A DNA stretch of 33,579 bases from Lentisphaerota bacterium (GCA_015061845.1 SUVT01000020.1:1-33579); one strand, 5' to 3'. Positions 1,574 through 32,943 are shown, numbered from the stretch's first letter. The notes: a model not told the origin generated them from the sequence alone. Numbers and translations are program-made.

Positions 1574-1627
1574 TACTCTGAGAATAACAGTATATTGAGA
1601 ACAACATGCAACCAAGGAGGCAAAATT

Positions 1628-3175
1628 ATGGGTTCTTGTATTCTTGCAAGCGGATTTATTGAGGGAAGTATCCTCATATCAGTCCTGATCATTATCATTT
1701 TATTCGTAACGATCATGGGAATCGCATCACGATTCAAAAAATGTCCTTCGGACCAGATACTTGTGATCTACGGTAAAACCGGTGGACAGCGTGCGGCAAA
1801 ATGTATCCATGGCGGTGCGGCTTTCGTCATCCCGATCATTCAGGATTACAGTTTTCTTTCCTTGCGCCCCCTCCCCATTGACGTCAATCTGACCAATGCA
1901 CTTTGTATTCAGAATATCCGTATCAACGTTCCCTCAGTATTTACAGTCGGGATCAGTACAGATGAGGCTCTGATGGGGAATGCAGCAAACCGTCTGCTCG
2001 GACTTTCCTCGGATATGATCGCAGACCTTGCAAAAGATATCATCTTCGGACAACTCCGTCTGGTGATTGCATCCATGACCATTGAACAGATCAACTCCGA
2101 CCGTGAAACTTTCCTGCGTAAGATCGAAGAAAATGTTGCAGAAGAATTAAATAAAATCGGACTTCAGCTTCTCAACGTTAACATTACAGACATCACCGAC
2201 GAAAGCGGATATATTGATGCGATCGGAAGAAGAGCTGCAGCAGAAGCGATCAACCGTGCAAGAATCGATGTTGCGGAAGAAGAACGGAAAGGCGGAATCG
2301 GGGAAGCTGAAGCTCATAAAGCACAGCGTATTGCCGTTTCCAGTGCAGAAGCGGAAGCCCAATCCGGAGAAGCAAACGCTGATAAACAACGCCGTATTGC
2401 AGTCAAACAGGCAGAAGCGGAAGCACTCGTCGGAGAAGCAAACGCTGACCGTGACCGCCGTATCTCTGTGAAACAGGCAGAAGCATCTGCTATCGAAGGG
2501 GAAAATATCTCCGCAATCGAAATTGCAAAATCCAATGCCGCCCGTTTGGAACAGGAAGCTGATGCCTTCCGCCGTTCTGAAGCAGCAAAGAAAGTTGCAG
2601 AAGCAAACATCAAAAAGGCAGATTATGAAGCTGAAATGGGCGCACAGATCGCCCGTGCAAAGATGGAAAGCGAAAAACAGAAAGCTGACGTGATCGTCAA
2701 AGCTGAAATCGATAAAGAGCAGATGGTCATTGCAGCAGAAGCAGAAGCTGAAAAGAAACGCCGTGAAGCACGCGGGGAAGCAGATGCAATCTTTGCAAAA
2801 CTCGAAGCTGAAGCAAAAGGTAATTATGAACTTTTGAAAGCGAAGGGCGAAGGTTTCCAGCAGATCGTTGCAGCCTGCGGAAGTAATGCGGATGCCGCTG
2901 CAAAGATGCTCATGATCGAAAAACTCGACCAGATCGTTGCTCTTCAGACAGAAGCGATCCGCAATATCAAGATCGACAAAGTCACCGTCTGGGACAATGG
3001 TTCCAAGGGAAAAGATGGCAAGACTGCCACTTCTGATTTTCTCAGCGGCATTGTCAAGAGCCTTCCGCCGCTTCATGATGTTGCCGGAATGGCAGGTCTT
3101 GAGCTGCCCCAATATCTTGGCAAAGTGAAAGATGCCAATCCCGATGAACCTCAGGATCCTGAAAAGGCTGCCTGA
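1628..3175 (+). CDS. flotillin-family SPFH/band-7 protein (FloT/YqiK-like)
   Basis: AGGAGG RBS then the ATG at 1628. N-terminal TM helix. SPFH core (ILVIYGKTGG...FVIPIIQ...). Long Glu/Ala-rich region with AEAEA repeats typical of flotillins. The track ORF starts at 1490, but the RBS-supported start is 1628. Confidence 0.8.
   Translation: MGSCILASGFIEGSILISVLIIIILFVTIMGIASRFKKCPSDQILVIYGKTGGQRAAKCIHGGAAFVIPIIQDYSFLSLRPLPIDVNLTNALCIQNIRINVPSVFTVGISTDEALMGNAANRLLGLSSDMIADLAKDIIFGQLRLVIASMTIEQINSDRETFLRKIEENVAEELNKIGLQLLNVNITDITDESGYIDAIGRRAAAEAINRARIDVAEEERKGGIGEAEAHKAQRIAVSSAEAEAQSGEANADKQRRIAVKQAEAEALVGEANADRDRRISVKQAEASAIEGENISAIEIAKSNAARLEQEADAFRRSEAAKKVAEANIKKADYEAEMGAQIARAKMESEKQKADVIVKAEIDKEQMVIAAEAEAEKKRREARGEADAIFAKLEAEAKGNYELLKAKGEGFQQIVAACGSNADAAAKMLMIEKLDQIVALQTEAIRNIKIDKVTVWDNGSKGKDGKTATSDFLSGIVKSLPPLHDVAGMAGLELPQYLGKVKDANPDEPQDPEKAA
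2300..2497 (+). repeat. three tandem 66-bp (22-aa) repeats inside the flotillin EA-rich region
   Basis: Units GEAEAHKAQRIAVSSAEAEAQS, GEANADKQRRIAVKQAEAEALV and GEANADRDRRISVKQAEASAIE. The nucleotide units ggagaagcaaacgctga... at 2366 and 2432 are near-identical. Confidence 0.5.
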
Positions 3176-3189
3176 CCGTTCTGAATTTT

Positions 3190-3216
3190 GCCCTGTCTCC
3201 CCGGACAGGGCTTTTC
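3190..3216 (+). terminator. rho-independent terminator after flotillin
   Basis: gccctgtc / gacagggc 8-bp GC-rich stem with a 6-nt loop, followed by TTTT. Confidence 0.6.
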
Positions 3217-3259
3217 ATTAAAAACTGAACTTTCCTAAAAAATACAAAGGAGAACAAAA

Positions 3260-4585
3260 ATGTTTAAAGTCGGCTATGCACAGGAAATTATCACACCGCC
3301 TACAGGGGTTGGTCTTGCAGGTTACTTCAACAAACGCCCGAACGAAGGGATGTATGACGATCTTTATGTCAAAGTGATCATGATCGAAGCAAAAGAGAAA
3401 CTTTGCGGTTTCGTTGCCTTCGACCTGACATCCGTTCCTGCTGAAATTTACACAGATCTTGAAAAATTCGTTTCTGAAAAATATGGCAAGGAACTTTACA
3501 ACAACATGATCGTTTCCGCAACCCACACCCATACCGGACCGGAAATCCGTTTCCGCCGTGAAGAGTGGGACGATCGCACCTACTATGCTTATGATCTTGC
3601 TCTGGAAGGTGCAAAACGTGCTATCACCCGTGCAATCATGAACCTGCTCCCCGCTGAAATGGAAGTCGGTTCCGTCTACAACAACCCCTATGCGTTCGTT
3701 CGCAGATATTTTATGAAAAACGGTACCATCGTCACAAATCCCGGCTGGGGCAATCCCGATATCGAAAAACCGGAAAGTGAACTTGACCGTACCATCAGTT
3801 TCCTGAAAATCATCCAGGGCGGAAGAATTGCCGCTTTGATCTGCAACATTGCAAATCATGGCGATACCATCGGCGGAAACATCGTTTCCGGCGACTGGTA
3901 CGGACGTTTCACTCAGGAGATCCAGTACGAACTGAAAACAAGTCTTCCTGTCATTGTTCTTGACGATGCTTCCGGAGACGTGAACCACTTCGACTTCCGT
4001 CAGAAAATCAATCAGACCAGCTTCAAAGAAGCCGTTCGTATCGGACGCGGTTATGCACGGATCATTCTGGATGCTCTCAACGAGACCGAAAAGGTCACAG
4101 AAGAAGACATCATTGTGAAGAATGCTGTCGTTACGATCCCGCACCGTCAGGTCACCGATGAAGAGTATGCAGAAGCAGAACACGTTCTTGCAACAGTTCC
4201 CGATATCAAAATGAATCGTGACCTGGAAAGTCAGGACCTTGCAAACAAGGTTCCGGCTGCACTCCGTCACTTTGCCCAGAGAACCATCGACTGCCGCAAC
4301 AAGAGTGTCCCGTCCCATGACGGAAGAGTTACTTCCATCAGTTTTGGAAAGCAGCTCACCTTTGTCGCTGTTCCCGGCGAACCGTTCAACGGCGTTGCCC
4401 GTGCGATCCGTGAAAAATCAGATGCAAAATACACCTTTGTGGTCTCCCTTTCCCAGTCCATGTCCGGTTATGTTCCCATGCCGGAATGTTTTGAACGGGG
4501 CGGCTATGAAGTTCAGCCCGCAGTCAACTCTGTTGCTCCCAATGCAGCAACAGAACTGATCAAAGCCGCAATGGAAGTCCTCTGA
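3260..4585 (+). CDS. neutral/alkaline ceramidase-family hydrolase (N-terminal catalytic domain only, 441 aa)
   Basis: AAGGAGAA RBS. N-terminus FKVGYAQEIITPPTGVGLAGY and the Zn-site motif SATHTHTGPE resemble bacterial neutral ceramidase (YRIGVGKSDITGE... / AATHTHSGPGG). It is shorter than the ~670-aa ceramidases, so the C-terminal beta-sandwich domain is absent. Confidence 0.55.
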   Translation: MFKVGYAQEIITPPTGVGLAGYFNKRPNEGMYDDLYVKVIMIEAKEKLCGFVAFDLTSVPAEIYTDLEKFVSEKYGKELYNNMIVSATHTHTGPEIRFRREEWDDRTYYAYDLALEGAKRAITRAIMNLLPAEMEVGSVYNNPYAFVRRYFMKNGTIVTNPGWGNPDIEKPESELDRTISFLKIIQGGRIAALICNIANHGDTIGGNIVSGDWYGRFTQEIQYELKTSLPVIVLDDASGDVNHFDFRQKINQTSFKEAVRIGRGYARIILDALNETEKVTEEDIIVKNAVVTIPHRQVTDEEYAEAEHVLATVPDIKMNRDLESQDLANKVPAALRHFAQRTIDCRNKSVPSHDGRVTSISFGKQLTFVAVPGEPFNGVARAIREKSDAKYTFVVSLSQSMSGYVPMPECFERGGYEVQPAVNSVAPNAATELIKAAMEVL

Positions 4586-7720
<3,135 letters not shown>

Positions 7721-8710: not shown

Positions 8711-9844
8711 ATGCTGCTCTTTCTTTCACCGATCCTGGCAATTTTCATATTCTTTGTTGCAATCTTTCCTTTAAAGATCAATCGCTGGTGGAAACTGAGC
8801 ATCTTTCTTGTACTTTTTGCGATATCCCAGAAATATCTGATCATGTACCTGTTTGGCGGAAGAGTTCTTTTTGCGCCTTCATTGCCGCGGGGACTCATGC
8901 TTTTTTCGGCATGGCTCTATGCTGTTCTTATCTGCTGGTTTGCATTACTCCTGCTCAGCGTTATTGTCCGGGGAATTGTCCGGCTGTACCACAAGCGCAA
9001 ACAGAAAAAAATGCCGAATAACTGGAGTAAATGGGTCGGCAGAACGAACTTTATTCTTCTCGGGCTCTCGATTCTCTGCATCTCTCTTGGCATCTACTGG
9101 GGAACCGCCCTGCCCGAGGTAAAGAACAAAACGATTTATCTGAAAGATCTTCCATCCGGAGCAGAGGGCATGAAGATCGCAGTTCTTGCTGATTTGCATA
9201 TTGATTACATCACTGAGCCGGAACACATAAGAGAAATCATCAGACGAACCAATGCGGAAAAGCCTGATTTGATCGTAATTGTCGGTGATTTTGTCGATGG
9301 AACAGTGGAGCGGTGTGCTGCAAAAATGGCTCTCCTGAAAGAATTGGATGCCCCTTACGGTGTATGGGGAGTTCCGGGGAACCATGAATATTATTCCGGC
9401 TATAACGATTGGATGTACTTTCTGGAACGGGAAGCAGATGTCACAATGCTTCTGAACCGTTCTGTCAAGCTCCCAAATGGTGTTTATCTGGCGGGGACGA
9501 CCGATCAGGCGGCAAAGCGTTTCTGGGAGGAACTGCCCGATCCCGAAAAAGCTGCAGGCAATATGAAACCGGAAGATTGCGGGATCCTTCTTGCACATAA
9601 CCCGAAATTGGCCCATAAAGCGAAAGATTTGTATGATCTTCAGTTTTCCGGTCACACGCATGGAGGTATGATCCTCGGCATGGATTTACTGGTCAGACAG
9701 ATGAATGGCGGATTTGTTTCCGGGCATTATCAAGTTGGAAACATGCAGCTTTACCTGACAAACGGAACTGCGATCTGGAGCGGATTCCCAATCCGTTTCG
9801 GACGTCCGTCTGAGATTACAATGATTACTTTGAAAAAGAAGTAA
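8711..9844 (+). CDS. membrane-anchored calcineurin-like metallophosphoesterase (YkuE/COG1408-like)
   Basis: Three to four N-terminal TM helices, then MPE motifs LADLHID, GDFVDG, GNHEY and GHTHGG. Confidence 0.7.
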   Translation: MLLFLSPILAIFIFFVAIFPLKINRWWKLSIFLVLFAISQKYLIMYLFGGRVLFAPSLPRGLMLFSAWLYAVLICWFALLLLSVIVRGIVRLYHKRKQKKMPNNWSKWVGRTNFILLGLSILCISLGIYWGTALPEVKNKTIYLKDLPSGAEGMKIAVLADLHIDYITEPEHIREIIRRTNAEKPDLIVIVGDFVDGTVERCAAKMALLKELDAPYGVWGVPGNHEYYSGYNDWMYFLEREADVTMLLNRSVKLPNGVYLAGTTDQAAKRFWEELPDPEKAAGNMKPEDCGILLAHNPKLAHKAKDLYDLQFSGHTHGGMILGMDLLVRQMNGGFVSGHYQVGNMQLYLTNGTAIWSGFPIRFGRPSEITMITLKKK

Positions 9845-9862: not shown

Positions 9863-9901
9863 AAAAAAAAATCAGGAAATCCGGTTTTCCTGATTTTTTT
9901 A
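9863..9901. terminator. bidirectional intrinsic terminator between convergent operons
   Basis: An A8 run, then the hairpin atcaggaaa / tttcctgat (9-bp stem, 6-nt loop), then a T7 run. It serves the plus operon ending at 9844 and the minus operon ending at 9916. Confidence 0.6.
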
Positions 9902-9915
9902 TGTTCAAACAATGA

Positions 9916-11484
9916 TCAATCTGAACTTTTTTCTTCCTGAATGACCCCGTTCAGCCGGGGTGCAAGTTTCGGGAAATTCTTCATGACCATCAACACGATC
10001 TCGCGTTTCATTGTTCCAAAGGGCGGAAGATGCATTCTTTCGACATCCTTGAACGAACGTGAATAGCGATCATGAGCCATCTGAGCAAGTTTCAAATGAG
10101 CTTCTCCTGCAGCGCTGTCATCATACGCAATATAAATCGCCGCAGTGTAAATCAAACCGCTGATCAGGTCATGGGCCTGCTTATAGGAACCATCCTTCAT
10201 ATCTTCTTCCCACTGGGAAACAATAAACTGTTCAAAGTTCAGGAACCGTTTATCATAGGAAACGCGTTCTTTCCGCATGATATTAAAGTATTCCCGTGCC
10301 TTCTTCTCCCTTCCGTAAGAATAAAGAATAACAATCGCATCGATCATATAGTTATCTAATGCACTCTTGAAAGAATGGGCGAAGTCATTGCGTTCAGCTG
10401 CAAGCAGGAATGATTCGCGGACTGCATCAGCCAGTTCCAGGTTCGGAACCATGATAAAGTCCTCACTGGGTGTTTTTTCCGGGAAGAGCATCCGTCCGCC
10501 AATGAAAGACTCTTTCAGGGACTGGGTGATCATACGGTCACATTCAATACTGAAACGGTTGGGACTGTACATGTTGCCAAGAGTTGCCCAGTAGATTGCA
10601 TGGGACTCAGAGGCACGCCAGTCAAGCTTGCCATACTTCTTATTGATCTCTATCACTACTTCCGGACGGATTTTATAATGGTCTCTGAGCCAGATCGCAC
10701 GCAGGAATGTTTCCAGTTCCAACGCCTCTTCATCAGACAAAGCCTCTTTCAAAGACTCAGGAAGCTGTCCAGTTTTCCGGAATGCACGGTTCAAAGATTC
10801 ATCGTCCCGATAACCGGCAGACTGAATTTTGTTCCAGAAAGAATTGGAAGAGTTCTTTCTGCGGAACTCAATAAATGACCTGGGAGCATTGTTCAAGGCT
10901 TCCCAATCAGGATCGGGCACACCGCCGAATGCGACCTGCATCTCTTTTGCAATCTGATACTTATAATATTTCTGGGCATCGTCCAGAGTATTTCCCATCT
11001 TGTGCTGATAGATCCACCCGAGCTGCTGATACAGTTTCGGGTCGTTGGCATTATAATTCAAGCCTTCATCACGGATGAGTTCGATCCCCCGCTGCACCCA
11101 TCTCCACCGGTCCTGCTTGTCCTGAAACGTAACTGAAATATTATACGACATATTCCAAGCAAGGAAGGATATCGCACCTGTAAACTTCGGCTGTAATTTT
11201 GTAATCCATGAAGCCAGCTGAACAAGTTCAAAGTATTTGCCTTCTTCCTGCAGAGTTCCGGCACGGAGCCAAAGCAAGTCTGCCAGAATTCCACGGAATC
11301 CACCAAGCGCAACTGTTGTAAATGCGACCATTGGCGGTAAACCTTTGTCATTGACAGCTTCATCGACCAGTTTTTCCTGGGTAATAATTTTATCCATTTT
11401 ATTCTGAATGGAGAGATTGATTCCCAGCAACACTCCGATTACAAGAAGCGCAAGAATCCATATTTTGAATTTTCTGAAACTCAT
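9916..11484 (-). CDS. N-terminally membrane-anchored helical (TPR-like?) hypothetical protein, last gene of the long minus-strand operon
   Basis: Single N-terminal TM (IWILALLVIGVLLGINL). About 500 extracytoplasmic, mostly helical residues with no recognisable catalytic motif. Lies 17 bp downstream of the ABC-2 permease. Confidence 0.45.
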   Translation of the reverse strand: MSFRKFKIWILALLVIGVLLGINLSIQNKMDKIITQEKLVDEAVNDKGLPPMVAFTTVALGGFRGILADLLWLRAGTLQEEGKYFELVQLASWITKLQPKFTGAISFLAWNMSYNISVTFQDKQDRWRWVQRGIELIRDEGLNYNANDPKLYQQLGWIYQHKMGNTLDDAQKYYKYQIAKEMQVAFGGVPDPDWEALNNAPRSFIEFRRKNSSNSFWNKIQSAGYRDDESLNRAFRKTGQLPESLKEALSDEEALELETFLRAIWLRDHYKIRPEVVIEINKKYGKLDWRASESHAIYWATLGNMYSPNRFSIECDRMITQSLKESFIGGRMLFPEKTPSEDFIMVPNLELADAVRESFLLAAERNDFAHSFKSALDNYMIDAIVILYSYGREKKAREYFNIMRKERVSYDKRFLNFEQFIVSQWEEDMKDGSYKQAHDLISGLIYTAAIYIAYDDSAAGEAHLKLAQMAHDRYSRSFKDVERMHLPPFGTMKREIVLMVMKNFPKLAPRLNGVIQEEKSSD

Positions 11485-11501
11485 TGCTGTTATCCTTATC
11501 T

Positions 11502-12989
11502 TTAACGTTTTACGGACGCTATGCCGAATTCACGTTTACTGTATATCCAGATACCAAGCAAGACAAGAGGAAGTCCCTTCAAGACAACTTGATAAAGGAT
11601 CACGGTTCCCATCATGGAAAGTTCAATCAATTCACCGTTCGCCACAAATTCAGACATTGAGAACTTCTGAACCGGAATCACAGCTGTTAAAAGAACCTGA
11701 CCGAAAATATATCCATACCGATCCATTGCCGGCATTGCGGCAACAGAATCATAATTCTTGATCGGGCTTTGGAGATACAGAGAAAACGCTCCATAAGCAA
11801 TATAACAAAGTGTAAAGAATATTGCGGTAGGCATGGAAAGGAAAGAAGCTGCTGAGAATGCAATCATGGTCACTACAAAAACACCGAGCCATTCCATAAA
11901 CACTGCACGGAGATAGTTATTGAAGAAACTGACCTCCTTGATCATAAGCTTCGGACCATCCTCCAACCGGAACTGAACAGGTTTTTGTGTAAGGTTGGTA
12001 AAGGTTACTTCCGCTTTTTTATCATGGATCATACGACCATCCGCATATTCAGACGGAAATTCCAGTTCATTTACAGATACGGTGAGATATTCCCCGATAC
12101 CATGATTCAGATAAGCGGCTCTGTAATCTTTCTTCGCATCTTGTCCGCTGCTATCCTTTGCCACATCGGATTTTACTTCAAAATGGTACAAACCGCCCCA
12201 GGCACCACTAACCCGTTCAGCAGTCTGAGATGTACTGTCGGTATAAATCCGGTAACGGATATAGAAGCTGCCTTTATAATCTTTCGGCAGATTTTCATAT
12301 ATCCAACGACGGGTGAGACCGGGTTTCACTTCAGAAAGACCGGCATAAACCTGCCGCTGGATTTCAGTCAGGATTTTCTTCTTCTGCTCTTCAGTATAAA
12401 CGTTATGAACAGGTTTTCCATCCGGACCTCTCTTTGCCATTTCTTCTTCATACCGCTTCTGTACCAAACCATTGATATCCGGAGCTTTCGGCATATAAAC
12501 GCGTCGTCCGGTCAGAAGTTCATTACTGATTTTATCCTGCTCGCGGCGGGCATTGGCAACCTCTTCCTTATTCTCCTTATCGGACACAATACCAGCCTTC
12601 TTGTACTGCCAGTTCACAAACCCATAGACAGCAAGAGAAGAAAGGAGAAGCAGAACGGTAAGAAGAAGCATGACTCCGGAAAATTTTCCGAGCCAGATAA
12701 CCGGTCTGGAAACCGGCTTGACCGCTATCATGTGAATCCGGTTATCTTCCAAATCCTGAGTCATCATCTGACACCCCAGCCAGATACCGGAAAGCATAAG
12801 CATCAATGAAATAAAGGAAAGACTGTATTCCAGAGAGACTTTGATAAATCCATAGGCAGAACCATCGCCTTTGATCGTGTTGGGGATAATAAGAATTCCC
12901 AGCAAGAGAATGACCAGCAAAAACTGAAACACATGAGAACGCAATGCGCCCCTGCATGTCAGCTTTACAATTGAGAAGTATGCAGACAT
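11502..12989 (-). CDS. ABC-2 family permease with a ~230-aa extracytoplasmic loop
   Basis: Three N-terminal and four C-terminal TM helices flank a large soluble loop. Lies 17 bp downstream of an ABC ATPase. Confidence 0.6.
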   Translation of the reverse strand: MSAYFSIVKLTCRGALRSHVFQFLLVILLLGILIIPNTIKGDGSAYGFIKVSLEYSLSFISLMLMLSGIWLGCQMMTQDLEDNRIHMIAVKPVSRPVIWLGKFSGVMLLLTVLLLLSSLAVYGFVNWQYKKAGIVSDKENKEEVANARREQDKISNELLTGRRVYMPKAPDINGLVQKRYEEEMAKRGPDGKPVHNVYTEEQKKKILTEIQRQVYAGLSEVKPGLTRRWIYENLPKDYKGSFYIRYRIYTDSTSQTAERVSGAWGGLYHFEVKSDVAKDSSGQDAKKDYRAAYLNHGIGEYLTVSVNELEFPSEYADGRMIHDKKAEVTFTNLTQKPVQFRLEDGPKLMIKEVSFFNNYLRAVFMEWLGVFVVTMIAFSAASFLSMPTAIFFTLCYIAYGAFSLYLQSPIKNYDSVAAMPAMDRYGYIFGQVLLTAVIPVQKFSMSEFVANGELIELSMMGTVILYQVVLKGLPLVLLGIWIYSKREFGIASVKR

Positions 12990-13006
12990 ACTGATCCTCC
13001 TACCGG

Positions 13007-14155
13007 TTATTTCTTATCGTCACTGGAGAACAGATCGGAAAGTTTCTTGTTGGCTTCGTCCAACTGCTGCTGTACAGCTTCATCGACAGGAGTTTCCGGA
13101 ACTTCTTCTTTTTCTTCCAGATCACTCAACATCTTCTGACTCTGCTCTGTCAAAACAGGAGCTGTCGGTTCAGGGACTTCTTCCACCGGTTCAGGTTCAA
13201 CTCCGGCAAGCCGGTCAAGTTTTGCCTTGCCTGTTTCAGAAATATCGCCATCAACGAGATAACTTGCGATTTCACCGCCGGAAGTTGCTCCGGAAGTAGA
13301 AATGCTTTCTTTCTTAGCATCATCCACAACATTGAGGAAGAAGTCTTCCAGCGTACGATGCGGGTGATCAATGGTAATTTCAGCATCTGTATTTTCGCGG
13401 ATAACAGCCTGAATTTTTTCCATGGCTTCCGGCGGAAGATCAGGAATGGTGATCCGGCTGGAAGTTTTCACGGAAAGCAGTTCTTCCATGGAACCTTCTG
13501 CACGGATCTTACCTCCGTAAAGAATGATCACACGGTCACAAACATCTTCCACATCGCTGAGAAGGTGACTTGTCACAAGGACAGTTTTTCCTCTGCGTTT
13601 CAGAAGAAGGATCAGATCTTTCACTTCACGGCAACCGATCGGGTCAAGTCCGCTGGTAGGTTCGTCCAGAATCAGAAACGCAGGGTCATTGATCATTGCC
13701 TGAGCAAGTCCGATACGGCGAGCCATACCTTTGGAAAACTCTCCGACCCGGCGGTTTGCAGCATGAGAGAGCCCAACCATGTCGAGCAGCTGCTCTGTAC
13801 GGGTTTTACGTTCCTTGGCGGAAAGTCCGAACAGAGAACCGAAGAAATCCAGTGTTTCGTAAGCTGTAAGATACTTGTAAAGATACGTTTCTTCAGGAAG
13901 ATAACCGATCATCCGTTTTGCATCAACACTGCGGGGAGATGTTCCGAAAACGCTCAAACGTCCACCTGTGGGGTAAAGCAGACCAAGCAGCATCTTCACT
14001 GTGGTGGATTTCCCGGATCCGTTCGGACCGAGAAGACCAAGGACTTCGCCCTCTCTGACTTCAAAATCAATATCATTGACGGCTTTAGCTTTGGGGCGGT
14101 TCCAGAAATCACGGAACTCTTTGACAAGTCCGACTGCTTCAACTACATTTGCCAT
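13007..14155 (-). CDS. ABC transporter ATP-binding protein with an acidic Pro/Glu-rich ~150-aa C-terminal tail
   Basis: Walker A GPNGSGKST, signature FSKGMARR, Walker B LILDEPTSGLD, H-loop TSHLL. The tail contains EPEPVEEVPEPTAPV...EEKEEVPETPVDE. GGAG RBS about 9 nt upstream, 26 bp after the P-type ATPase stop. Confidence 0.85.
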   Translation of the reverse strand: MANVVEAVGLVKEFRDFWNRPKAKAVNDIDFEVREGEVLGLLGPNGSGKSTTVKMLLGLLYPTGGRLSVFGTSPRSVDAKRMIGYLPEETYLYKYLTAYETLDFFGSLFGLSAKERKTRTEQLLDMVGLSHAANRRVGEFSKGMARRIGLAQAMINDPAFLILDEPTSGLDPIGCREVKDLILLLKRRGKTVLVTSHLLSDVEDVCDRVIILYGGKIRAEGSMEELLSVKTSSRITIPDLPPEAMEKIQAVIRENTDAEITIDHPHRTLEDFFLNVVDDAKKESISTSGATSGGEIASYLVDGDISETGKAKLDRLAGVEPEPVEEVPEPTAPVLTEQSQKMLSDLEEKEEVPETPVDEAVQQQLDEANKKLSDLFSSDDKK

Positions 14156-14181
14156 TTTCAGTTATACTCCACGGATAAATA

Positions 14182-16131
14182 TTATTTGGTCTGTTCCTGC
14201 TGCGATTCTGCAAGCGTGATATTCTCGCCTGTACGGACAAGACGTGCACTGTTAAAGATGACGATCAATGTACTGACCGTATGGAAAATTGCCGCAACAA
14301 CAGGGGTCAATTCTCCAAAGACAGACAGGATGATACCGCCGACGACGAAAATCATACCGAACGCAAGGTTCTGGCTGATCACTGAAGACATCTTCTTGGA
14401 AAGAGCGATCAACAGGGGAATACGGCGCAAGTCATTGTTCATTAATGCAATGGATGCACTGTTGATTGCAATGTCACTGCCGATTGCACGCATTGCAATA
14501 CTCAGGTTACCGGCAGCAAGCGCAGGAGCATCGTTCACACCATCCCCGACAAATGCAACCAGAGAGTCTTTCTTGACATTTTCAACATATTCCACTTTAC
14601 CTTCCGGCAGGCAGTCGCCCTGGAAATCATCAATACCGAGTGTCTTGGCAACTTCGCTTGCAACTGCAGCACGGTCACCGGTAACCATTGCACACTGACG
14701 GATTCCGGCAGCCTTCAATTCTTTGATCGTTTCAGCTGCTTCCGGACGGATCTTGTCACGGAAACCAAGCATACCCATCAATTTACCATTGCGGGCAATT
14801 CCGACAACACTCATGCCGATCACTTCTGTTTCATCCTGATCGATCACGATTCCCTGCTCAGCCATCCACTTTGTACGACCGACAACACAGGGGGCTCCGC
14901 CAATATTTGCGGTAACACCTTTTCCGTGAACTTCTTCATAATCAGTGCCTTCCGTCACCTTGATACCGACTTCTTTTGCAAGACGGAGGATCGCAAGAGC
15001 GGTCGGGTGGTTACTGCGGGATTCAACAGAGGCTGCAACCAGAAGCAATTCTGCCGGTTCAACACCTTCTACAGGACGGATCTTGGCAACAGCCAATTCA
15101 CCTTCTGTAAGAGTACCGGTTTTGTCAAACACAAATGTCTTGATCTTGGATGCAAGTTCCAGGTGGGTGATGTTCTTGATCAGAATACCGAGACGTGCTG
15201 CTGCAGCAACGGCTGCAACGACAGCGGTCGGAGTTGCAAGAACAACTGCACAGGGACATGCAATAACAAGCAGCGTGATCACACGGTTCATGTCTCCATC
15301 GGAGAACCACCAGGTGAGCATGGCAAGCATCAGGATCGTGGGGGTATAGAACGCTGCATATTTATCAATAAGACGAACGATTGGGCTCTTGCTGGACTCA
15401 GCGGCAAGAATCATTTCTTTCACTTTACCGAGGGTGGTATCATCACCGATCTTGGTGACACGGACTTCGATACCACCGGAAAGGTTCTGGGTACCGGCAT
15501 AAACTTCATCGCCAACAGCCTTATCAACAGGGAGAGATTCCCCGGTAATGGATGCCTGGTTCACCGCACTCTGACCTTCGATGATCTCACCATCGACCGG
15601 GAAGTTTTCACCGGGACGGACACTGATGACATCACCGATAGAAAGTTCAGCAGCTTCCACATCGGTGTAAGTACCGTCAGCATTCTTTTTATGGGCATCG
15701 TGAGGAGTCAACCGGAGGAGTTCTTCGATAGAACGCTGCGCTCCGGAAGCTGTTCTTGTTTCAATGATGATCGTGATCAGCAGGAAGAAAGAAATGATCC
15801 CTGCTTCACGGAATTCCTGTCCGGCAAATGCTGCAAGAATTGCAAGTGCAACGAGTTCATTCATATAAACCCGTCCGACACAAAGGTCTCTGACAGCAGC
15901 AATAAAGATCGGCAATGCCAGAACAATTGCCCCGATCACAGCACTGACTTCAGATGCGAAGGGCTGTTCCGGAAAGAACCATTCCAAAAGGAAAGAGTTC
16001 AAAACCAGGAAACCACCGACCGCAGCGAACGCAGCGCGCCCCATGCTGCGACCATGTCCGCGACCTTCGGACATCAATTCGCCGTTTTTGGCATCTTCTG
16101 TATGGTCATGTCCGCAGATACATACGCTCAT
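14182..16131 (-). CDS. P1B-type heavy-metal-translocating ATPase (CPC motif), no HMA domain, His/Cys-rich N-terminus
   Basis: DKTGTLT phosphorylation site, GDGVNDAPALA, TM CPC motif (IACPCAVVLATP), TGES-like ITGESLP. The N-terminus MSVCICGHDHTED is a short metal-binding tag. The start overlaps the stop of the upstream SPFH gene by 4 nt. Confidence 0.85.
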   Translation of the reverse strand: MSVCICGHDHTEDAKNGELMSEGRGHGRSMGRAAFAAVGGFLVLNSFLLEWFFPEQPFASEVSAVIGAIVLALPIFIAAVRDLCVGRVYMNELVALAILAAFAGQEFREAGIISFFLLITIIIETRTASGAQRSIEELLRLTPHDAHKKNADGTYTDVEAAELSIGDVISVRPGENFPVDGEIIEGQSAVNQASITGESLPVDKAVGDEVYAGTQNLSGGIEVRVTKIGDDTTLGKVKEMILAAESSKSPIVRLIDKYAAFYTPTILMLAMLTWWFSDGDMNRVITLLVIACPCAVVLATPTAVVAAVAAAARLGILIKNITHLELASKIKTFVFDKTGTLTEGELAVAKIRPVEGVEPAELLLVAASVESRSNHPTALAILRLAKEVGIKVTEGTDYEEVHGKGVTANIGGAPCVVGRTKWMAEQGIVIDQDETEVIGMSVVGIARNGKLMGMLGFRDKIRPEAAETIKELKAAGIRQCAMVTGDRAAVASEVAKTLGIDDFQGDCLPEGKVEYVENVKKDSLVAFVGDGVNDAPALAAGNLSIAMRAIGSDIAINSASIALMNNDLRRIPLLIALSKKMSSVISQNLAFGMIFVVGGIILSVFGELTPVVAAIFHTVSTLIVIFNSARLVRTGENITLAESQQEQTK

Positions 16132-17303
16132 TTTGCGGCCTCCTTACTCTTTTGAATAACGTTTTTGTCTGTCTTCGGTTCAGGATTGAGCTTCAGACGG
16201 ATTTCCTGTTTTCCGGATCCCAGAGAATTGACAACAAATTTATCGTTGACCTGTGCAAAGGCATCTGAAACTGCCTGCGTGAAGAGATCTACGATAACAG
16301 AGGACGGATTTTCCTGATACTTCGGCAAAAGCATCTTGAAGTAATTGGCATCGGCAGCCACTTCAGAAACAACTTTTGCACTGTAGTTCTCAGCTTCTGA
16401 AATCAGCACATTCTTTTCTGATTCTGCTGCAGCTTTCTGCTTGGAAGCATAAGCTCTTGCTTTGTCCTCTTCTGATTTTGCTTTTGTTTCAGCAGAAGTG
16501 ACTTCGTTGAACGCATTAATGGTTTGCGGAGGAGGACTCTTCACGCCCAGACTGACCGTCTCGACAGTGATACCGATCTTCAAGTCTGCAATCTGCTTTT
16601 TCACCAAGCGTTCCACTTCCATGCGGTACTCATTGGTTTTCTTGAAGATGATATCATTCACGTCCCACTTTGCAGTGACCTGCAGGACTGCGTTATCCAA
16701 CACATTCCGGAGCAGAGTTTTCGGTCCGCGAGTCCCGATTTCTTCCCCTTTATCATTCTTGAAAACGGTATCCGCTTCAGCCGGGACATCAGGCGTCATG
16801 CAGGTTTCATAATAACGTTTGGGAGCAGAGATTCTGTATGTCATACTCCAGGAGGTATGAATCACGCAGGCATCTGCAGTAATGAGATAACCATCAACGC
16901 CCGGAATCAGGGTTTCACCACCTTGAGGATTATTCTTCCGGTCTGTGATCAATTTTTCATTTGCAGGCATAAAAGTATTGCTTGTAATAGTCTGCGGGGT
17001 TGTCGGAATTTCAATGATCTTGCTGACGGGGAACGGGAACACCCAGTGCCAATCATCAGTGTAAAGCTCTTTGAATTTACCAAACTGCGTAACGATCACA
17101 GCAGTATCAGGACGGACTGTAAAGAAACCGCTGAACGTAAAGAACCAGATCAGCAGAATCAATATCAAGCTTGAAAGCAGGATAAACACCGCCTTCAAAC
17201 TCTTGACAAGCATATCCATTCCGGATGAAAAAACGCCATCACCCGAAACGTTTGTTGCTTCTGTCAATTCTTTATTTTCATTTTCCATTGTAGAATTCTC
17301 CAT
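16128..17303 (-). CDS. SPFH/band-7 protein, HflK-like
   Basis: N-terminal TM, SPFH core (TVRPDTAVIVTQFGKF...), C-terminal coiled coil rich in A/E/K. GGAG RBS. Lies 8 bp after the previous SPFH gene. Its stop overlaps the ATPase start. Confidence 0.7.
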   Translation of the reverse strand: MENSTMENENKELTEATNVSGDGVFSSGMDMLVKSLKAVFILLSSLILILLIWFFTFSGFFTVRPDTAVIVTQFGKFKELYTDDWHWVFPFPVSKIIEIPTTPQTITSNTFMPANEKLITDRKNNPQGGETLIPGVDGYLITADACVIHTSWSMTYRISAPKRYYETCMTPDVPAEADTVFKNDKGEEIGTRGPKTLLRNVLDNAVLQVTAKWDVNDIIFKKTNEYRMEVERLVKKQIADLKIGITVETVSLGVKSPPPQTINAFNEVTSAETKAKSEEDKARAYASKQKAAAESEKNVLISEAENYSAKVVSEVAADANYFKMLLPKYQENPSSVIVDLFTQAVSDAFAQVNDKFVVNSLGSGKQEIRLKLNPEPKTDKNVIQKSKEAAK

Positions 17304-17311
17304 CGGAAAGG

Positions 17312-18364
17312 TTATTTTTTCTTTGCTTCACCGTTGGAGGCAGAAGGCTTTTCACCGGATTTCTCAACTTCAGAGCTGAGAGAGTCGCCCAGCTTCAGAA
17401 TATCAAACGGCGCACAATTGGTATCGAGAATCAGGGTTGTCCGTTTTCCCATCAACCGTTTCATTGATTCCAATTTCCGGAGGAACATTGCAAGCTGAGG
17501 ATCAGCTTTGAATTCTGCGTAGTATTTGGCAGCAGCAGAGTCACCTTCTGCTCGGATCTTCTTCGCTTCTGCTTCCGCATTGGTCAGTGTATTGGTATAA
17601 TCATTGTCGGCTTTGGTCATGATCTCTTTTGCTTTGACTTCTCCCTGACTCTTGTATTTTTCTGCTTCGGTCTTACGTTCGGAAATCATGCGCTCTGCAA
17701 TTGCTTTTGCAGGTTCATCAGGCACACCGATGGTCCGGATGTTCACAGAAACGACTTCAAGCCCCCACTGTTCAAAAGCGGGAGGTGCAATCATTTCAAT
17801 CATTTCAGATTCCATATCACTGATTTTGATTTTGTCAGGATCGGAATTCACCAACTGATTGAATTCATACTTACCGATAATTGCACCTTTCGCAGAACGC
17901 ATAAGGATCCCAAGCTGATCTTCTGCAGTTGCAATGCTTCCACCGGCACTCTGGAATTTGATCAAATCTTTGATACGGAAAACGGTATAGATGGAAACAG
18001 TGATATTTTTTCCATCGCTGGTGGGAGTTTCTTCCAGCTTTCCAATATTTCCATCATAGCATCTGAGACGGGTATCGTACTTCATCACTTTCTGAATCGG
18101 ATAGGGCCAGCGGAAATGCAATCCGGGCTGTCTGACGACAGGATCGATTTTTCCCAGTGTAATAACAACAGCACGTTCCGTTGTCGGCACCTGATAAGAG
18201 AAGATTGCAATCAGAAAGATAATTGCCACAGCAAAGCCCAATAACATGATAGGGACATTGACATGCTTCTTCTTTGTTTCTGTTACCTTGTGATCGTGTT
18301 CATGCTCACATTTGCAATCTTTGTGATCATGATCATGATTGTGACCGCAGCAAGTTTCGGACAT
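17312..18364 (-). CDS. SPFH/band-7 protein, HflC-like, with a His/Cys-rich N-terminal metal-binding tag
   Basis: N-terminus MSETCCGHNHDHDHKDCKCEHEHDHK, then a TM helix and an SPFH domain (ERAVVITLGKIDPVV...HFRWPYPIQKV). HflC-like C-terminus (AEGDSAAAKYYAEFKADPQLAMFLRKLESM). Confidence 0.7.
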   Translation of the reverse strand: MSETCCGHNHDHDHKDCKCEHEHDHKVTETKKKHVNVPIMLLGFAVAIIFLIAIFSYQVPTTERAVVITLGKIDPVVRQPGLHFRWPYPIQKVMKYDTRLRCYDGNIGKLEETPTSDGKNITVSIYTVFRIKDLIKFQSAGGSIATAEDQLGILMRSAKGAIIGKYEFNQLVNSDPDKIKISDMESEMIEMIAPPAFEQWGLEVVSVNIRTIGVPDEPAKAIAERMISERKTEAEKYKSQGEVKAKEIMTKADNDYTNTLTNAEAEAKKIRAEGDSAAAKYYAEFKADPQLAMFLRKLESMKRLMGKRTTLILDTNCAPFDILKLGDSLSSEVEKSGEKPSASNGEAKKK

Positions 18365-18401
18365 TTTTCAAACTCCTGTATTTATGTTATTTTTTGTTTT
18401 T

Positions 18402-20363
18402 TCAGTTGATGTTACCGCCAAGATCAGCATCAAGGAGATCAAGCCGCGGTTTTTCTTCGGCATTGAGTTCCAGAATTTGATACGGGATCGTTGCGGATAA
18501 GATATATTTTCTCAAGTCGGCACAATCATTTTCAAGGAAAGAAAGATATGTGCGGAGCTTGAACATTGAGGGCATCGCTTTGTATGCAGCAAGCTTGCTC
18601 TGGAATTCACGGGCATCATATTCAGAGACCGTGGTACGTTTGTATTTGTAAGTATCAGCTTCCTGCTTGATCTGCATTTCTTTAACCTTGGCAGAAGCAT
18701 CTTTTTCAAGTTTGTATGTCTCAGCCTTTTCGATTTCGGTTTCCATCTTCTGTTCCGCAATGAAAACGCCCTGGAATGCAGCAGCAACATCCTTGACAGG
18801 AGGATGTGTTCCATTCAAATCGACGCTGAGGATCGTAACACCAAGATTCCATTCATCAGCACGTTTCTGAATGCGTTCAGTAAGGTTCTTCGTAATCTCT
18901 TTACGACCTTCCGCCAAGTCACGGTTAAAATCAGTACTTGCAAAATAAATTGTTGCTTCCTGGGTTCCGAGATCAAGCAGAGCCTGATCAACATTACGGT
19001 AATTCAGGAAATAATCCATGACCTTATCTTTATTGACTTTATAAGTCACAGGAAGCACAGCATTGAGCATAGATACGGCATTTCCAAGATCCTGACTGGA
19101 TCCGCTGTTCTTATCCGTTTTCTGCGCTGAACTGCTGTTTGCCACAAGGAAAGGCATTTCACCTTCTTCATGTTCTTTTGTCCAGAGAATCGTTTTCAAA
19201 GGAGCTTTCTCAGGCTGAGCTTTCGTGTCTTTTTTCGCTTCAACACCAATTGTTACAACACGGGGTTCATCGATCTTGATCCGGGAGATCTTGTCGCAGG
19301 GCCACGGAAGTTTGAAATAGAGACCGGGCTGAAGAGGTTCGGAAGAGACAAGCTTACCGAACCGGGTCTTGATTCCGACTTCTCCGGGTCCTACTTCCCC
19401 GATACATGTGAAAAGCCAGAAAACGACGAGCCAGACAAAAATTGCCGGGAGAGCGACTTTACAGAACTTCTGGAACAACCAGGTTCCGGAAACCTTAAAC
19501 CCGAACTGATAGTCAAGTGTATTTGCAATATTTTTCGCGACACTGCCCGGATCAATAAAGATCGCAAGAATACGGCTTTCATGTACCGGACGGTCTTCCA
19601 CTTGTGTTCTGGGACGATAGAATTCAGCGACGAAGCTGAAAATAAATTCCGCGCCGAGAATTGCCAATACAACAAAAACGACCTTTGCGATCGGGAGATC
19701 CCAACCCGGATTTTTATAATGAAGAGCAACAGCAGAAACAGCTGCCAGCAACCAAACAAAAGCTCCGGCAACAAACCAGGCTCCAATGGGACGCAGCCAG
19801 CGGAATTCATTCATCCGGCTCTGACCGGACAGAAACATCCCGGTGAAAAGTGCTACTGCAGCAGAAATCACACATACAAAAGCCAAAACCATCGGATTCT
19901 TCGGAGCGGGCAGCCCGACTGCGCCATAAGCTGCCGGTGTACCGTAGGCTTTGAGCAAGGAAAGGGCAACAAAAAGCAAAGCAATGATACAGAAAACCTG
20001 CGGAGCCTTTTTCAAATAATTGGCAAAGGTCCGTCCTGCGGTAAAACGAACATCTTCAGAGACATCCATAATACTGTGAAGAGACTCTTTCCGCTTCTTC
20101 AACAGTTCTTTTTCATACTCTTCTTCAGCTGCATTTCCGGACAGCAATCCGTAAAATATTGCAGCAACGCTGAAAATGACAGCAACACCAAAGGGAATCA
20201 CTCCCATAGTAAATGTCCCAATACCGCTCCAGCCATTACCATAACTGGCGATCAAAGCCAATATGGTAAAAAACAGAGACTCAATAAGAGCAAGAATTGC
20301 AAGTTTCATTGCAATTTTAGATCTCTCACTGCTTCCAGCATAATTTTTAATTCCGTCAGCCAT
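18402..20363 (-). CDS. polytopic membrane protein (~8 TM, ~300 aa) fused to a C-terminal SPFH/HflK-like domain
   Basis: AGGAG RBS. N-terminal half made of hydrophobic helices. C-terminal half GEVGIKTRFGKLVSSEPLQPGLYFKLPWP... then a coiled coil. First gene of the operon. Confidence 0.65.
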   Translation of the reverse strand: MADGIKNYAGSSERSKIAMKLAILALIESLFFTILALIASYGNGWSGIGTFTMGVIPFGVAVIFSVAAIFYGLLSGNAAEEEYEKELLKKRKESLHSIMDVSEDVRFTAGRTFANYLKKAPQVFCIIALLFVALSLLKAYGTPAAYGAVGLPAPKNPMVLAFVCVISAAVALFTGMFLSGQSRMNEFRWLRPIGAWFVAGAFVWLLAAVSAVALHYKNPGWDLPIAKVVFVVLAILGAEFIFSFVAEFYRPRTQVEDRPVHESRILAIFIDPGSVAKNIANTLDYQFGFKVSGTWLFQKFCKVALPAIFVWLVVFWLFTCIGEVGPGEVGIKTRFGKLVSSEPLQPGLYFKLPWPCDKISRIKIDEPRVVTIGVEAKKDTKAQPEKAPLKTILWTKEHEEGEMPFLVANSSSAQKTDKNSGSSQDLGNAVSMLNAVLPVTYKVNKDKVMDYFLNYRNVDQALLDLGTQEATIYFASTDFNRDLAEGRKEITKNLTERIQKRADEWNLGVTILSVDLNGTHPPVKDVAAAFQGVFIAEQKMETEIEKAETYKLEKDASAKVKEMQIKQEADTYKYKRTTVSEYDAREFQSKLAAYKAMPSMFKLRTYLSFLENDCADLRKYILSATIPYQILELNAEEKPRLDLLDADLGGNIN

Positions 20364-20459: not shown

Positions 20460-20488
20460 AAAATACACCATAAAATACTATTTGTCAA
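20460..20488 (-). promoter_or_regulatory. putative sigma70 promoter for the SPFH/ATPase/ABC operon
   Basis: On the minus strand: perfect TTGACA (complement of 20483-20488), 17-nt spacer, TATTTT (complement of 20460-20465). About 95 nt upstream of the ATG at 20363, in a 179-bp AT-rich gap. Confidence 0.3.
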
Positions 20489-20542: not shown

Positions 20543-21124
20543 TCATTTAGGACGAAATGCGATATGAGGAACGGTTCTGCCGACTGCAAGCCAGTCCAAT
20601 TCAAACTCCGTTTTATATGTTGAAACATCTGCCAACGCATCGTCCGGCAATTGCTCAAAAAGCTCTGACTTTTCAATATTTTCCAAAGTGGCATTCATAT
20701 ACCGGGGATCATCCGTTGCAAAATGCAAAACACCATCCGGTTTCAGAATCCGCCGGAGTGACATCATAAATTCGGAAGACATCAGGCGGTTTCCTTTGTG
20801 TTTATGCTTCGGCCAGGGATCCGGACAGAGTATATGAATTCTGTCAAGGCAGCCATCCGGCAGGATCCTGCCTGTCAAATGCCGTCCCTCCACACGAAGA
20901 AGTTCCAGATTGTTCAAACCGGCACGTTTTCCCATTTTTTCAACTTTTCTCAATCTGCCAAGCATCACATCAGCAGCAAGAACAAGCGTTTCCGGATTGT
21001 CAGTTGCCAGTTTTATGGAAAAACCGCCGCTTCCGCATCCGAGATCAAGCTCTACCCGTTTCCACGGACTGACATCAATCACATCACACAAACGGCAATC
21101 AACTGCATTCAAAAGGTGAATCAT
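20543..21124 (-). CDS. trmB: tRNA (guanine46-N7)-methyltransferase
   Basis: SAM-binding motif VELDLGCGSGGF and the TrmB signature ILCPDPWPKHKHKGNRL. 193 aa. Its start overlaps the upstream gene stop (TAATG). Confidence 0.8.
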   Translation of the reverse strand: MIHLLNAVDCRLCDVIDVSPWKRVELDLGCGSGGFSIKLATDNPETLVLAADVMLGRLRKVEKMGKRAGLNNLELLRVEGRHLTGRILPDGCLDRIHILCPDPWPKHKHKGNRLMSSEFMMSLRRILKPDGVLHFATDDPRYMNATLENIEKSELFEQLPDDALADVSTYKTEFELDWLAVGRTVPHIAFRPK

Positions 21125-22230
21125 TATATATCTCCTGCAGGGTCTTTTGTCAAAATTTCAAATATCTTATCAGGAATGACATAATACCATCCCTCGTGTC
21201 CATCCAAAAACTTCTTCATACGGTTCATATCGACATCATCTCCACCTTTTTCAGCAGAAACTTTACAAACAACACATCCTTGTGCTTTCTCTGCCTTGTA
21301 AAATGTCAATTTCCGGATAAAACCTGTACTGTCTTTTGTGATAAGTTCTCCCAGTAAAGTCAATTTCCCGGTATCTTTTCCCCGCACGCCCTCAAAAATA
21401 TACCCCTGAGCAAGGTATTTAAACAGAGTTCCAAGATTCCGGGCGGGAACCAGAAGATTATCGCCGGGGATCCAACTCTGGAAAGGATCTTTTTCGTTAA
21501 AACGACCGATCAACCAGCTTGGAGTATATTTCGTTTTTGAAATATATTCAATGCGCACCAATTTATTGATATCATCAAAAACAGGACAGCTCATCCAGCG
21601 TCCGGGTCCGGGATGAAGATCTTCAAAGACGGTCGATACCAAAACCGGAACAACGGAACCATTGTTCTGAACAATTCCGACCCATCGCCCGCTGATTTCC
21701 GGTCTGCTGCCGGGCATTACCTGTTCCGGCTCATTGAAATGAACGCCTCCGAATACCAAATCCCGTAAGCATTTTTTGTTTTTATCAAACATCTGGACCC
21801 TGATTCCGGTACTTTTTCCGGAAGATCCCTGAATATTCACCGCGAGTTTTGAGCAGGTCTTATCATCAGCGGGAATTGCTTTCCGCAAGGGGCGGAGTTT
21901 TTGAAGCCGTTCAATAAAACGGACGACTTTATCTGTATCAGCTTTATGATAATCTCTTTCTTTGATATACCAAACGCCATTTTTTAAAGTCAAAGTAGTT
22001 TTATGCTCTCCCATTGAAACAACAATCTCAGCAGGTTCATCCAACGCAAAATTCTGCAAAAGATTTTTCATGGAAAGATTTGCTTTTTCTTTTTTATTTT
22101 TCTCTGACTTATAAGCAAAGAAAGCAACAAATATAAAGAGAAGGCAAATCACACATTTCAGGATGAATGACCGGTTCTGCCAGAGAAAATCTGCCGATTT
22201 TTTCAGAATAAACAATATTTTCTGCTTCAT
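21124..22230 (-). CDS. DUF4340-like protein (GldG-associated accessory protein)
   Basis: N-terminal TM anchor, then HKTTLTLKNGVWYIKERDYHKADTDKVVRFIERLQKL, which resembles DUF4340 proteins found downstream of GldG-type genes. Overlaps the upstream gene by 4 nt. Confidence 0.45.
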   Translation of the reverse strand: MKQKILFILKKSADFLWQNRSFILKCVICLLFIFVAFFAYKSEKNKKEKANLSMKNLLQNFALDEPAEIVVSMGEHKTTLTLKNGVWYIKERDYHKADTDKVVRFIERLQKLRPLRKAIPADDKTCSKLAVNIQGSSGKSTGIRVQMFDKNKKCLRDLVFGGVHFNEPEQVMPGSRPEISGRWVGIVQNNGSVVPVLVSTVFEDLHPGPGRWMSCPVFDDINKLVRIEYISKTKYTPSWLIGRFNEKDPFQSWIPGDNLLVPARNLGTLFKYLAQGYIFEGVRGKDTGKLTLLGELITKDSTGFIRKLTFYKAEKAQGCVVCKVSAEKGGDDVDMNRMKKFLDGHEGWYYVIPDKIFEILTKDPAGDI

Positions 22231-32205: not shown

Positions 32206-32206
32206 G

Positions 32207-32941: not shown

Positions 32942-32943
32942 TC

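Follow-up and report, generated by a model that had tools for sequence, protein, structure and literature searches.

Three adjacent genes in a 33,579-nt stretch of DNA from a gut Lentisphaerota bacterium (GCA_015061845.1 SUVT01000020.1; hereafter the window, to whose positions all coordinates refer unless a locus is named) very probably encode a single three-part machine built on a type V ATP-binding cassette (ABC) membrane subunit. Their products are an ABC ATPase, an ABC-2-type permease with a predicted folded periplasmic domain and a membrane-anchored α-solenoid of an unannotated family. The genes close a run of seven co-directional minus-strand genes that extends from 20363 down to 9916 in our open reading frame calls, in the order SPFH1–SPFH2–SPFH3–P1B–ABC ATPase–permease–solenoid (Table 1). 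Our favoured reading, to which we give a probability of roughly 40%, is that the trio uses its ABC motor as an extractor or mechanotransducer, doing work in the periplasm on a cargo that is anchored in the membrane and is probably a polypeptide. The architecture of the machine is drawn from sequence, structural models and gene linkage, which are presented first; the proposed function and its competitors follow.

Conservation of the trio and its neighbourhood

A scan of one genome per species recovered at least 594 loci with relatives of the solenoid, 80 of which were retained, mostly from Lentisphaerota with some from Kiritimatiellota and Verrucomicrobiota; denominators in the neighbourhood counts are the loci with enough upstream sequence. 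The permease gene lies directly upstream of the solenoid gene at every locus (76/76), and an ATPase gene lies upstream of the permease at 51 of 67. This adjacency, often tightened to 4-nt overlaps (all three genes at loci L081, L084 and L095), supports the assignment of the three products to one machine. The permease–solenoid pair is the invariant core and the ATPase its usual neighbour; pairs with no adjacent ATPase gene occur at L086 and at 16/67 genome loci.

The linkage of the trio to the upstream SPFH and metal-pump genes, which the sequence-only reading had staked on comparison with relatives, is conserved. A P1B gene precedes the ATPase at 45/61 loci, and all seven genes stand in order at 35 of 54, with six more loci in which only SPFH1 was undetected. 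The full order persists down to 35% solenoid identity, and each of four look-ups starting from SPFH1 homologues (L091–L094) returned the complete block, with different flanks each time. We conclude that the seven genes form a discrete unit conserved within Lentisphaeria; among the genomes that carry it in full is the complete one of a cultured strain, Lentisphaerota bacterium zth2 (CP071032), at locus L023.

The strongest competing account of this linkage is that it reflects inherited gene order only, with the trio acting independently and sharing a transcript through history and not through function. The trio or the permease–solenoid pair indeed stands alone at L009, L014, L028, L073, L081, L084, L086 and L095, the long-tailed ATPase is found elsewhere without adjacent SPFH genes, and in a Victivallis vadensis metagenome-assembled genome (MAG; L025) two unrelated co-directional genes (529 and 201 amino acids (aa); 5090–7288) separate the P1B and ATPase genes. 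We nevertheless consider this account somewhat unlikely, as the order of genes in the block is unchanged where the flanks on both sides differ (the window and L091–L094) and across the range of solenoid divergence given above, its two halves still adjoin at L017, where the SPFH–P1B half is inverted, a Band_7–P1B pair again adjoins the trio in a divergent lineage with FKBP fusions (L088), and the SPFH1 homologues examined all reside in full blocks. Because the trio is also found alone elsewhere, we regard it as a self-contained module that has been joined to the SPFH and P1B genes in Lentisphaeria, and the earlier description of the ABC genes as 'appended' to an SPFH/ATPase operon is a fair one.

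Other genes recur around these loci. ExbB/MotA-family and ExbD genes follow, or lie near, an ATPase-less permease–solenoid pair at L053 (3628–4813), L063 (11627–12271) and L084 (12737–13860). A CNNM/CBS gene (CorB-like divalent-cation exporter) lies 3′ of the solenoid gene in 12 block-carrying loci, including L018 (11710–12993), and a CNNM/CBS gene is also found at L094 (20542–21765).

The ABC ATPase and its acidic tail

The family calls of ABC ATPase and ABC-2-type permease both hold. The ATPase scores 111.9 bits against PF00005 (ABC_tran; gathering cut-off 25), and its Walker A (GPNGSGKST), Walker B with the catalytic Glu (ILDEPTSGLD) and H-loop (TSH) motifs are kept in 51 orthologues. The signature motif reads FSKGM, invariant in the family, and has a Lys where canonical LSGGQ has its first Gly. 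Judged by its Walker and H-loop motifs, the motor, an ATPase of the ABC-2 class, is predicted to be catalytically intact. Its best NCBIfam matches are to DrrA, GldA (second-best) and NodI, and every curated equivalog cut-off is missed (DrrA 225 versus 312; GldA 199 versus 403; NodI 160–172 versus 424–549; LptB 158.5 versus 240).

The acidic tail of this ATPase had been put at about 150 aa; it is actually about 97 aa (residues 286–382; 24 Asp/Glu, 9 Lys/Arg and 7 Pro); the preceding residues 236–285 are conserved and resemble a small C-terminal domain. Tails of 97–168 residues occur on all 51 adjacent orthologous ATPases among the 80 genome loci, with a TSGAxSGGxIAxYL motif at the start and an (E/D)(A/V)(N/D)xKLxDLL motif at the end. 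The first of these is retained in the short, linker-less ATPases of distant lineages (L081) and the second in the divergent ATPases of L088 and L090. Since it presents a short peptide of conserved sequence at the end of an acidic linker, the tail may serve as a cytoplasmic docking or autoregulatory element. We considered docking on the solenoid itself, by analogy with TPR domains that bind the C-terminal peptides of Hsp70 and Hsp90; this would need a cytoplasmic solenoid, and the Mip/FkpA-type fusions and SurA-like neighbour described below argue otherwise.

The permease

In an AlphaFold (AF2) model of the permease, an elbow helix (residues 3–16) precedes six transmembrane (TM) helices, TM1–TM6, with TM3 at 95–133 and TM4 at 355–381, and short helices (408–412, 421–436, 440–443 and 446–450) lie between TM5 and TM6. 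The elbow helix with TM1–TM6, the TM5–TM6 helices and the likeness to solved type V structures together show that the modelled permease has a type V fold, closest to NosY. NosY, PmtD, ABCG2 and CcmB outscore glycan exporters in this comparison, the margin of NosY over the other type V proteins being small. At the sequence level, the permease falls below the Pfam gathering cut-offs of ABC2_membrane_2 and ABC2_membrane_3 (17.4 versus 27.2 and 18.7 versus 31.6), although some homologues carry precomputed matches to these families. A sequence-profile search of the PDB returned no significant relative of the permease, with NosY among the top non-significant matches.

The periplasmic loop of about 230 aa described from the sequence is present, at residues ~134–354 between TM3 and TM4, and the model refines it to a predicted folded domain whose β-strands span 226–354. 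In this organism the permease would act as a homodimer with two copies of the ATPase. A different arrangement is suggested by the sequences of the L081 and L090 lineages, in which a small second ABC-2 membrane protein (322–325 aa) is encoded ahead of the ATPase (L081, 4734–5702; L090, 2838–3815). In an hhalign comparison this small protein proved paralogous to the N-terminal half of the large permease (probability 85%, N-terminal 105 columns), consistent with a heterodimeric membrane domain in those lineages; it has no counterpart in the window or in the Victivallales loci.

The solenoid partner

The 522-aa protein had been described as helical, with one TM segment and no recognisable family. 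It matches nothing in Pfam or NCBIfam, and the structure prediction and Foldseek search that had been suggested for it give an all-helical solenoid whose matches in the PDB are generic TPR arrays only (probability ≤0.99, TM-score ≤0.2, E ≥2e-3). A PDB profile search found nothing significant, and there is no Pfam TPR match, a few homologues having sub-threshold matches to TPR_17. The clear TM helix lies at residues 8–26, as expected; the description has to be extended by a second, weakly hydrophobic helix at 51–81, which is extremely conserved. Conservation was scored by column over 150 diverse family representatives and is concentrated in a core (residues 51–190) made of six consecutive helices, the first of which reads PPxVAFTTVALGxFRGxxADxLWLR and the other five of which hold the motifs WNMAYNIS, RWxW, WIYQHKxGN and DDAxxYYK. 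The TM anchor lacks such conservation. The model shows the partner as a predicted bitopic α-solenoid whose conserved part lies beside the membrane. An exhaustive profile search placed 2,886 clusters at 50% identity in the family at E ≤1e-3 and 2,044 at E ≤1e-10, and an identical copy of the 522-aa protein has been recorded from a Lentisphaerae MAG.

Three observations bear on where the solenoid sits. Its N-terminus is positively charged ahead of the TM helix. A C-terminal FKBP prolyl isomerase domain is fused to 4 of the 150 best family representatives; the fused domain is closest to Legionella Mip (6e-38) and Escherichia coli FkpA (7e-31), both extracytoplasmic enzymes, and one such fusion was seen on at least 24 contigs, arguing against an assembly artefact. 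At L090, a SurA-like gene encoding a signal peptide lies upstream of the system. On the strength of the charged N-terminus, the Mip/FkpA-type fusions and the SurA-like neighbour, the solenoid probably faces the periplasm and has a protein-handling role.

A proposed periplasmic function and its alternatives

In the proposed mechanism, ATP binding and hydrolysis in the cytoplasm would move the type V membrane domain, and this movement would be transmitted by the TM3–TM4 domain and by the conserved side of the solenoid next to the membrane, so as to do work in the periplasm. The most likely work would be extraction of a membrane-anchored amphipathic client from the outer leaflet, over the β-sandwich, to the solenoid; alternatively, a client held by the solenoid may be remodelled. 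The Mip/FkpA-type isomerase fused to related solenoids and the SurA-like gene at one locus make a polypeptide cargo, for instance an envelope protein held by an anchor or a lipid, more plausible than a metal or other small solute. What we infer in this scheme is the direction in which work is done, the placement of the solenoid in the periplasm and the nature of the client as a polypeptide.

Several considerations weigh against this proposal. The structures are single-chain AF2 predictions, and if helix 51–81 were a second membrane span, the solenoid could lie inside the cell. Proteins with FKBP_N and FKBP_C domains occur in the cytoplasm too, the FKBP fusions are a minority that may all come from a single clade, and the SurA-like gene accompanies the system at one locus only. 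The modelled β-sandwich resembles carbohydrate-binding modules, and the conserved Trp, Tyr, Asn, Asp, Arg and Lys residues of the solenoid would fit a glycan ligand and a peptide ligand equally well. At the 16 of 67 loci without an adjacent ATPase gene, the pair may use a remote ATPase or none. Finally, many lineages carry the trio without SPFH or P1B genes, so a physical supercomplex is not required.

The glycan-like features raise the alternative that the trio is a conventional type V exporter of a glycolipid or polysaccharide, comparable with Wzm/Wzt, TarGH or KpsMT, in which the carbohydrate-binding-module-like domain and the TPR-like partner act as a glycan guide or scaffold, much as AlgK, PelB and BcsC do in exopolysaccharide systems. 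Conserved aromatic and polar solenoid residues (W110, N111, Y114, N115, W127, W129, W157, K162, D168, Y174 and K175) would suit such a role, and glycan-related genes occasionally lie nearby, namely BacA and AsmA-like genes at L081, a GT87 gene at L084 and a glycosyltransferase cluster at L097. These neighbours are sporadic, however: no conserved glycosyltransferase, polymerase or Wzt-type carbohydrate-binding ATPase domain accompanies the trio across 80+ loci. Together with the isomerase fusions and SurA-like gene, which indicate polypeptides, and the lower structural scores of glycan exporters, this makes glycan export an unlikely function.

A role in NosDFY-like metal trafficking, with the P1B pump supplying periplasmic metal that the ABC complex loads or unloads through the solenoid, would account for the place of NosY among the top, non-significant, profile matches, the P1B gene directly upstream of most ATPases, the His/Cys-rich N-termini of SPFH2 and the P1B pump in this organism and the CNNM/CBS gene downstream in 12 loci. 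In alignments of homologues, however, neither the solenoid nor the periplasmic domain of the permease has a Cys, His or Met that is invariant or nearly so, which argues against a metal site in either, and a metal-binding partner was downgraded as a candidate on this ground and because the His/Cys tag of SPFH2 is lineage-specific, being shared by the window organism and its nearest relative alone. Moreover, the partner is all-α and not a NosD β-helix, no NosL-like gene is present, the trio is common without any P1B gene and NosY leads other type V proteins only narrowly. We judge metal trafficking improbable.

Least plausible of all is a pump that confers resistance to drugs or antimicrobial peptides, like DrrAB or the lantibiotic-immunity systems: every such match falls under its curated cut-off, no biosynthetic or regulatory resistance genes lie nearby, and the system, conserved in hundreds of species as a core module that is apparently single-copy and whose large periplasmic partner is obligatory, is unlike an accessory resistance cassette. 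Anti-phage defence was also considered and rejected: PADLOC, run on all seven proteins, returned generic ABC-ATPase similarity only.

The linked SPFH proteins, metal pump and gene array

The four upstream genes encode three SPFH proteins and a P1B-type pump. SPFH1 and SPFH3 are HflK-like and score below the TIGR01933 HflK cut-off of 159.4 bits (98.2 and 92.3 bits, respectively); homologues of SPFH1 are limited to Lentisphaerae. The cytoplasmic N-terminus of SPFH2 is rich in His and Cys, begins MSETCCGHNHDHDHKDCKCEHEHDHK and was found only in the window and its closest relative, L001. The ACPCA motif of the pump is conserved among homologues, and its N-terminal CxCGHxH motif also occurs in the Victivallis vadensis MAG. 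Neither the window nor the conserved block contains an FtsH gene. In Lentisphaeria, the ABC machine would be expressed as a unit with these four proteins, which might plausibly corral it in one membrane patch. The fullest version of this idea, that all seven genes form one FtsH-independent assembly in which a three-paralogue HflK/C-type cage encloses a metal pump and an ATP-driven periplasmic extractor or chaperone, is a long shot.

Most of what the sequence-only reading had said of the array stands. The three ABC genes occupy exactly the reading frames described, within a seven-gene co-directional array (9916–20363); the 26-nt gap between the P1B stop and the ATPase start has its GGAG, and the ATPase/permease and permease/solenoid spacers measure 17 nt each. 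A structure and terminator scan found no hairpin and no terminator-like site in the 26-nt spacer. Spacing and conservation are consistent with co-transcription of the seven genes. The expected bidirectional terminator corresponds to a hairpin that closes the array and is shared with a convergent metallophosphoesterase gene (8711–9844, plus strand). The TTGACA promoter fared less well: the match is present, but such promoter-like matches are not enriched in the region (17 versus 14.6 in shuffles), making it weak evidence.

Table 1. Features of the seven-gene array, listed from its 5′ end, with positions in the window
Feature	Position	Strand	Details
Promoter-like TTGACA-17-TATTTT	20460–20488	−	Consensus match only; ~97 nt upstream of SPFH1
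SPFH1, 653 aa, HflK-like	18402–20363	−	Seven predicted TM helices, then Band_7/SPFH; Pfam Band_7 1.3e-14
SPFH2, 350 aa, single-TM, HflC-like	17312–18364	−	TIGR01932 HflC 149.8 versus cut-off 134.4
SPFH3, 391 aa, single-TM, HflK-like	16128–17303	−	Band_7 3.8e-21; 4-nt overlap of its stop with the P1B start
P1B-type heavy-metal P-type ATPase, 649 aa	14182–16131	−	TIGR01525 550.4 versus cut-off 346.25; CPC membrane motif
26-nt spacer, P1B stop to ABC ATPase start	14156–14181	−	Sequence TATTTATCCGTGGAGTATAACTGAAA; GGAG inside
ABC ATPase, 382 aa	13007–14155	−	PF00005 4.7e-32; nucleotide-binding domain ~1–235, small C-terminal domain 236–285, tail 286–382
Tail motif 1, TSGATSGGEIASYL (residues 287–300)	13256–13297	−	Kept family-wide, short-tailed ATPases included
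Terminal tail motif, EANKKLSDLF (residues 367–376)	13028–13057	−	Consensus (E/D)(A/V)(N/D)xKLxDLL; ends acidic linker
Predicted type V (ABC-2) membrane subunit, 495 aa	11502–12989	−	Elbow helix, TM1–3, periplasmic insert, TM4–5, short helices, TM6
Predicted periplasmic domain between TM3 and TM4 (residues ~134–354)	11928–12590	−	Three helices and a carbohydrate-binding-module-like β-sandwich
Predicted signal-anchored TPR-like α-solenoid, 522 aa, unannotated family	9916–11484	−	AF2 mean confidence (pLDDT) 85.8; all-helical
Conserved solenoid core (residues 51–190)	10915–11334	−	29/140 columns ≥90% conserved versus 0/21 in TM1
Hairpin terminator	9865–9900		15-bp stem, A-run and U-run flanks, −17.5 kcal/mol, z −4.2

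Other genes in the window

Directly upstream of the array lies a second, separate ABC-2 system on the minus strand (21124–25813), the start and stop codons of which overlap. It consists of a GldA-like ATPase (24869–25813), an 882-aa GldF–GldG fusion with ABC_transp_aux and DUF7088 domains (22227–24875) and a 368-aa single-TM protein without a family (21124–22230), and is followed by TrmB (20543–21124). On the plus strand, within 1490–4585, a fourth SPFH protein, flotillin-like and 561 aa long (Band_7 with a weak Flot match), is followed by a 441-aa protein whose match to the neutral/alkaline ceramidase N-terminal family is just over the cut-off; a 224-aa reading frame without a family lies upstream of the flotillin-like gene (717–1391). 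A 965-aa protein encoded on the minus strand (27661–30558) combines an N-terminal Ser/Thr protein kinase with an FGE-sulfatase-like domain, and its gene adjoins one for a sigma-70 region-2 protein similar to extracytoplasmic function sigma factors (27134–27730). The window ends with a minus-strand uptake cluster of the iron-siderophore/cobalamin type (30555–33477), comprising an ABC ATPase (30555–31304), a FecCD-type permease (31249–32205), a radical-SAM protein (32207–32941) and a fragment of a periplasmic binding protein (32944–33477).

Significance

The periplasm lacks ATP, and few ABC machines are known to us that carry ATP energy to periplasmic work: Lol, Lpt, FtsEX, MacB and NosDFY. The trio looks like another such device, a hybrid of a type V fold with an Lpt-style insertion, and its partner family is unannotated despite comprising about 2,900 clusters in Lentisphaerota, Kiritimatiellota and Verrucomicrobiota. 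The SPFH scaffolds of the block have transporters and not FtsH as their conserved gene partners; to our knowledge, little has been established about which clients bacterial SPFH cages have besides FtsH. If the seven genes did form one assembly, they would provide the Planctomycetes–Verrucomicrobia–Chlamydiae lineage with a route by which cytoplasmic ATP drives the handling of envelope proteins or lipoproteins, a functional parallel to Lol or Lpt assembled from different parts. As strain zth2 carries the block, the question can be tested in culture. We found no publication on this system in the literature on SPFH proteins, P-type ATPases and Lentisphaerae, on HflK neighbourhoods or on LolCDE in Lentisphaerae.

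Comparison with known systems

The SPFH half of the block recalls the HflK/HflC–FtsH cage, in that SPFH2 passes the HflC cut-off, SPFH1 and SPFH3 are HflK-like and the layout in common is an N-in, single-anchor protein with a periplasmic SPFH domain. It differs in having three paralogues, one with a seven-TM N-terminal domain, in the lack of FtsH from the block and in conserved neighbours that are instead a P1B pump and an ABC trio. The gliding-type system GldA–GldF–GldG likewise pairs an ABC-2 ATPase and permease with a large membrane-anchored auxiliary protein, but that auxiliary is an ABC_transp_aux protein and not an unannotated solenoid, and matches of the trio lie below the GldA and GldF cut-offs. 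The window does contain a true GldF–GldG-like system, at 22227–25813.

LolCDE–LolA and PpiD/YfgM offer functional analogies only. LolCDE spends ATP on the cytoplasmic side to free an anchored protein from the membrane for transfer to the periplasmic carrier LolA, and PpiD/YfgM are inner-membrane-anchored helical or TPR-like chaperones with a prolyl isomerase module. LolC and LolE are four-TM type VII proteins, unlike the window permease, and neither a Foldseek search against the PDB nor a PDB profile search revealed a sequence or fold relation of the solenoid to LolA, PpiD or YfgM. Among type V exporters of glycans and lipids, none of Wzm/Wzt, TarGH, KpsMT, ABCG and ABCA has this solenoid partner, and where these carry extra domains they lie elsewhere, in the TM1–TM2 loop of ABCA, the TM5–TM6 loop of ABCG and the C-terminus of the Wzt ATPase.

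The two closest comparisons are with type VI and type V machines. In LptB2FG–LptC (type VI), as in the trio, an ATPase serves a six-TM subunit with a β-rich TM3–TM4 periplasmic domain and a bitopic partner; LptF and LptG place their β-jellyroll at the same TM3–TM4 position as the permease insert, Foldseek aligns the whole permease model to both, and the N-terminal TM helix and probably periplasmic domain of the partner follow the layout of LptC. However, the permease has no match to LptF_LptG (PF03739; E ≤0.01), its model has both the elbow helix and the TM5–TM6 helices that LptF and LptG lack, one permease gene stands in place of two, the partner is an α-solenoid and not a β-jellyroll, and the ATPase falls short of the LptB cut-off. 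With NosDFY(L), a type V mechanotransducer in copper-site assembly, the likeness is one of fold: NosY lacks a TM3–TM4 domain, NosD is a β-helix and not a solenoid, and the trio has neither NosL nor conserved metal ligands. The machine is most like LptB2FG–LptC in layout and NosDFY in fold, and by their defining features it belongs to neither.

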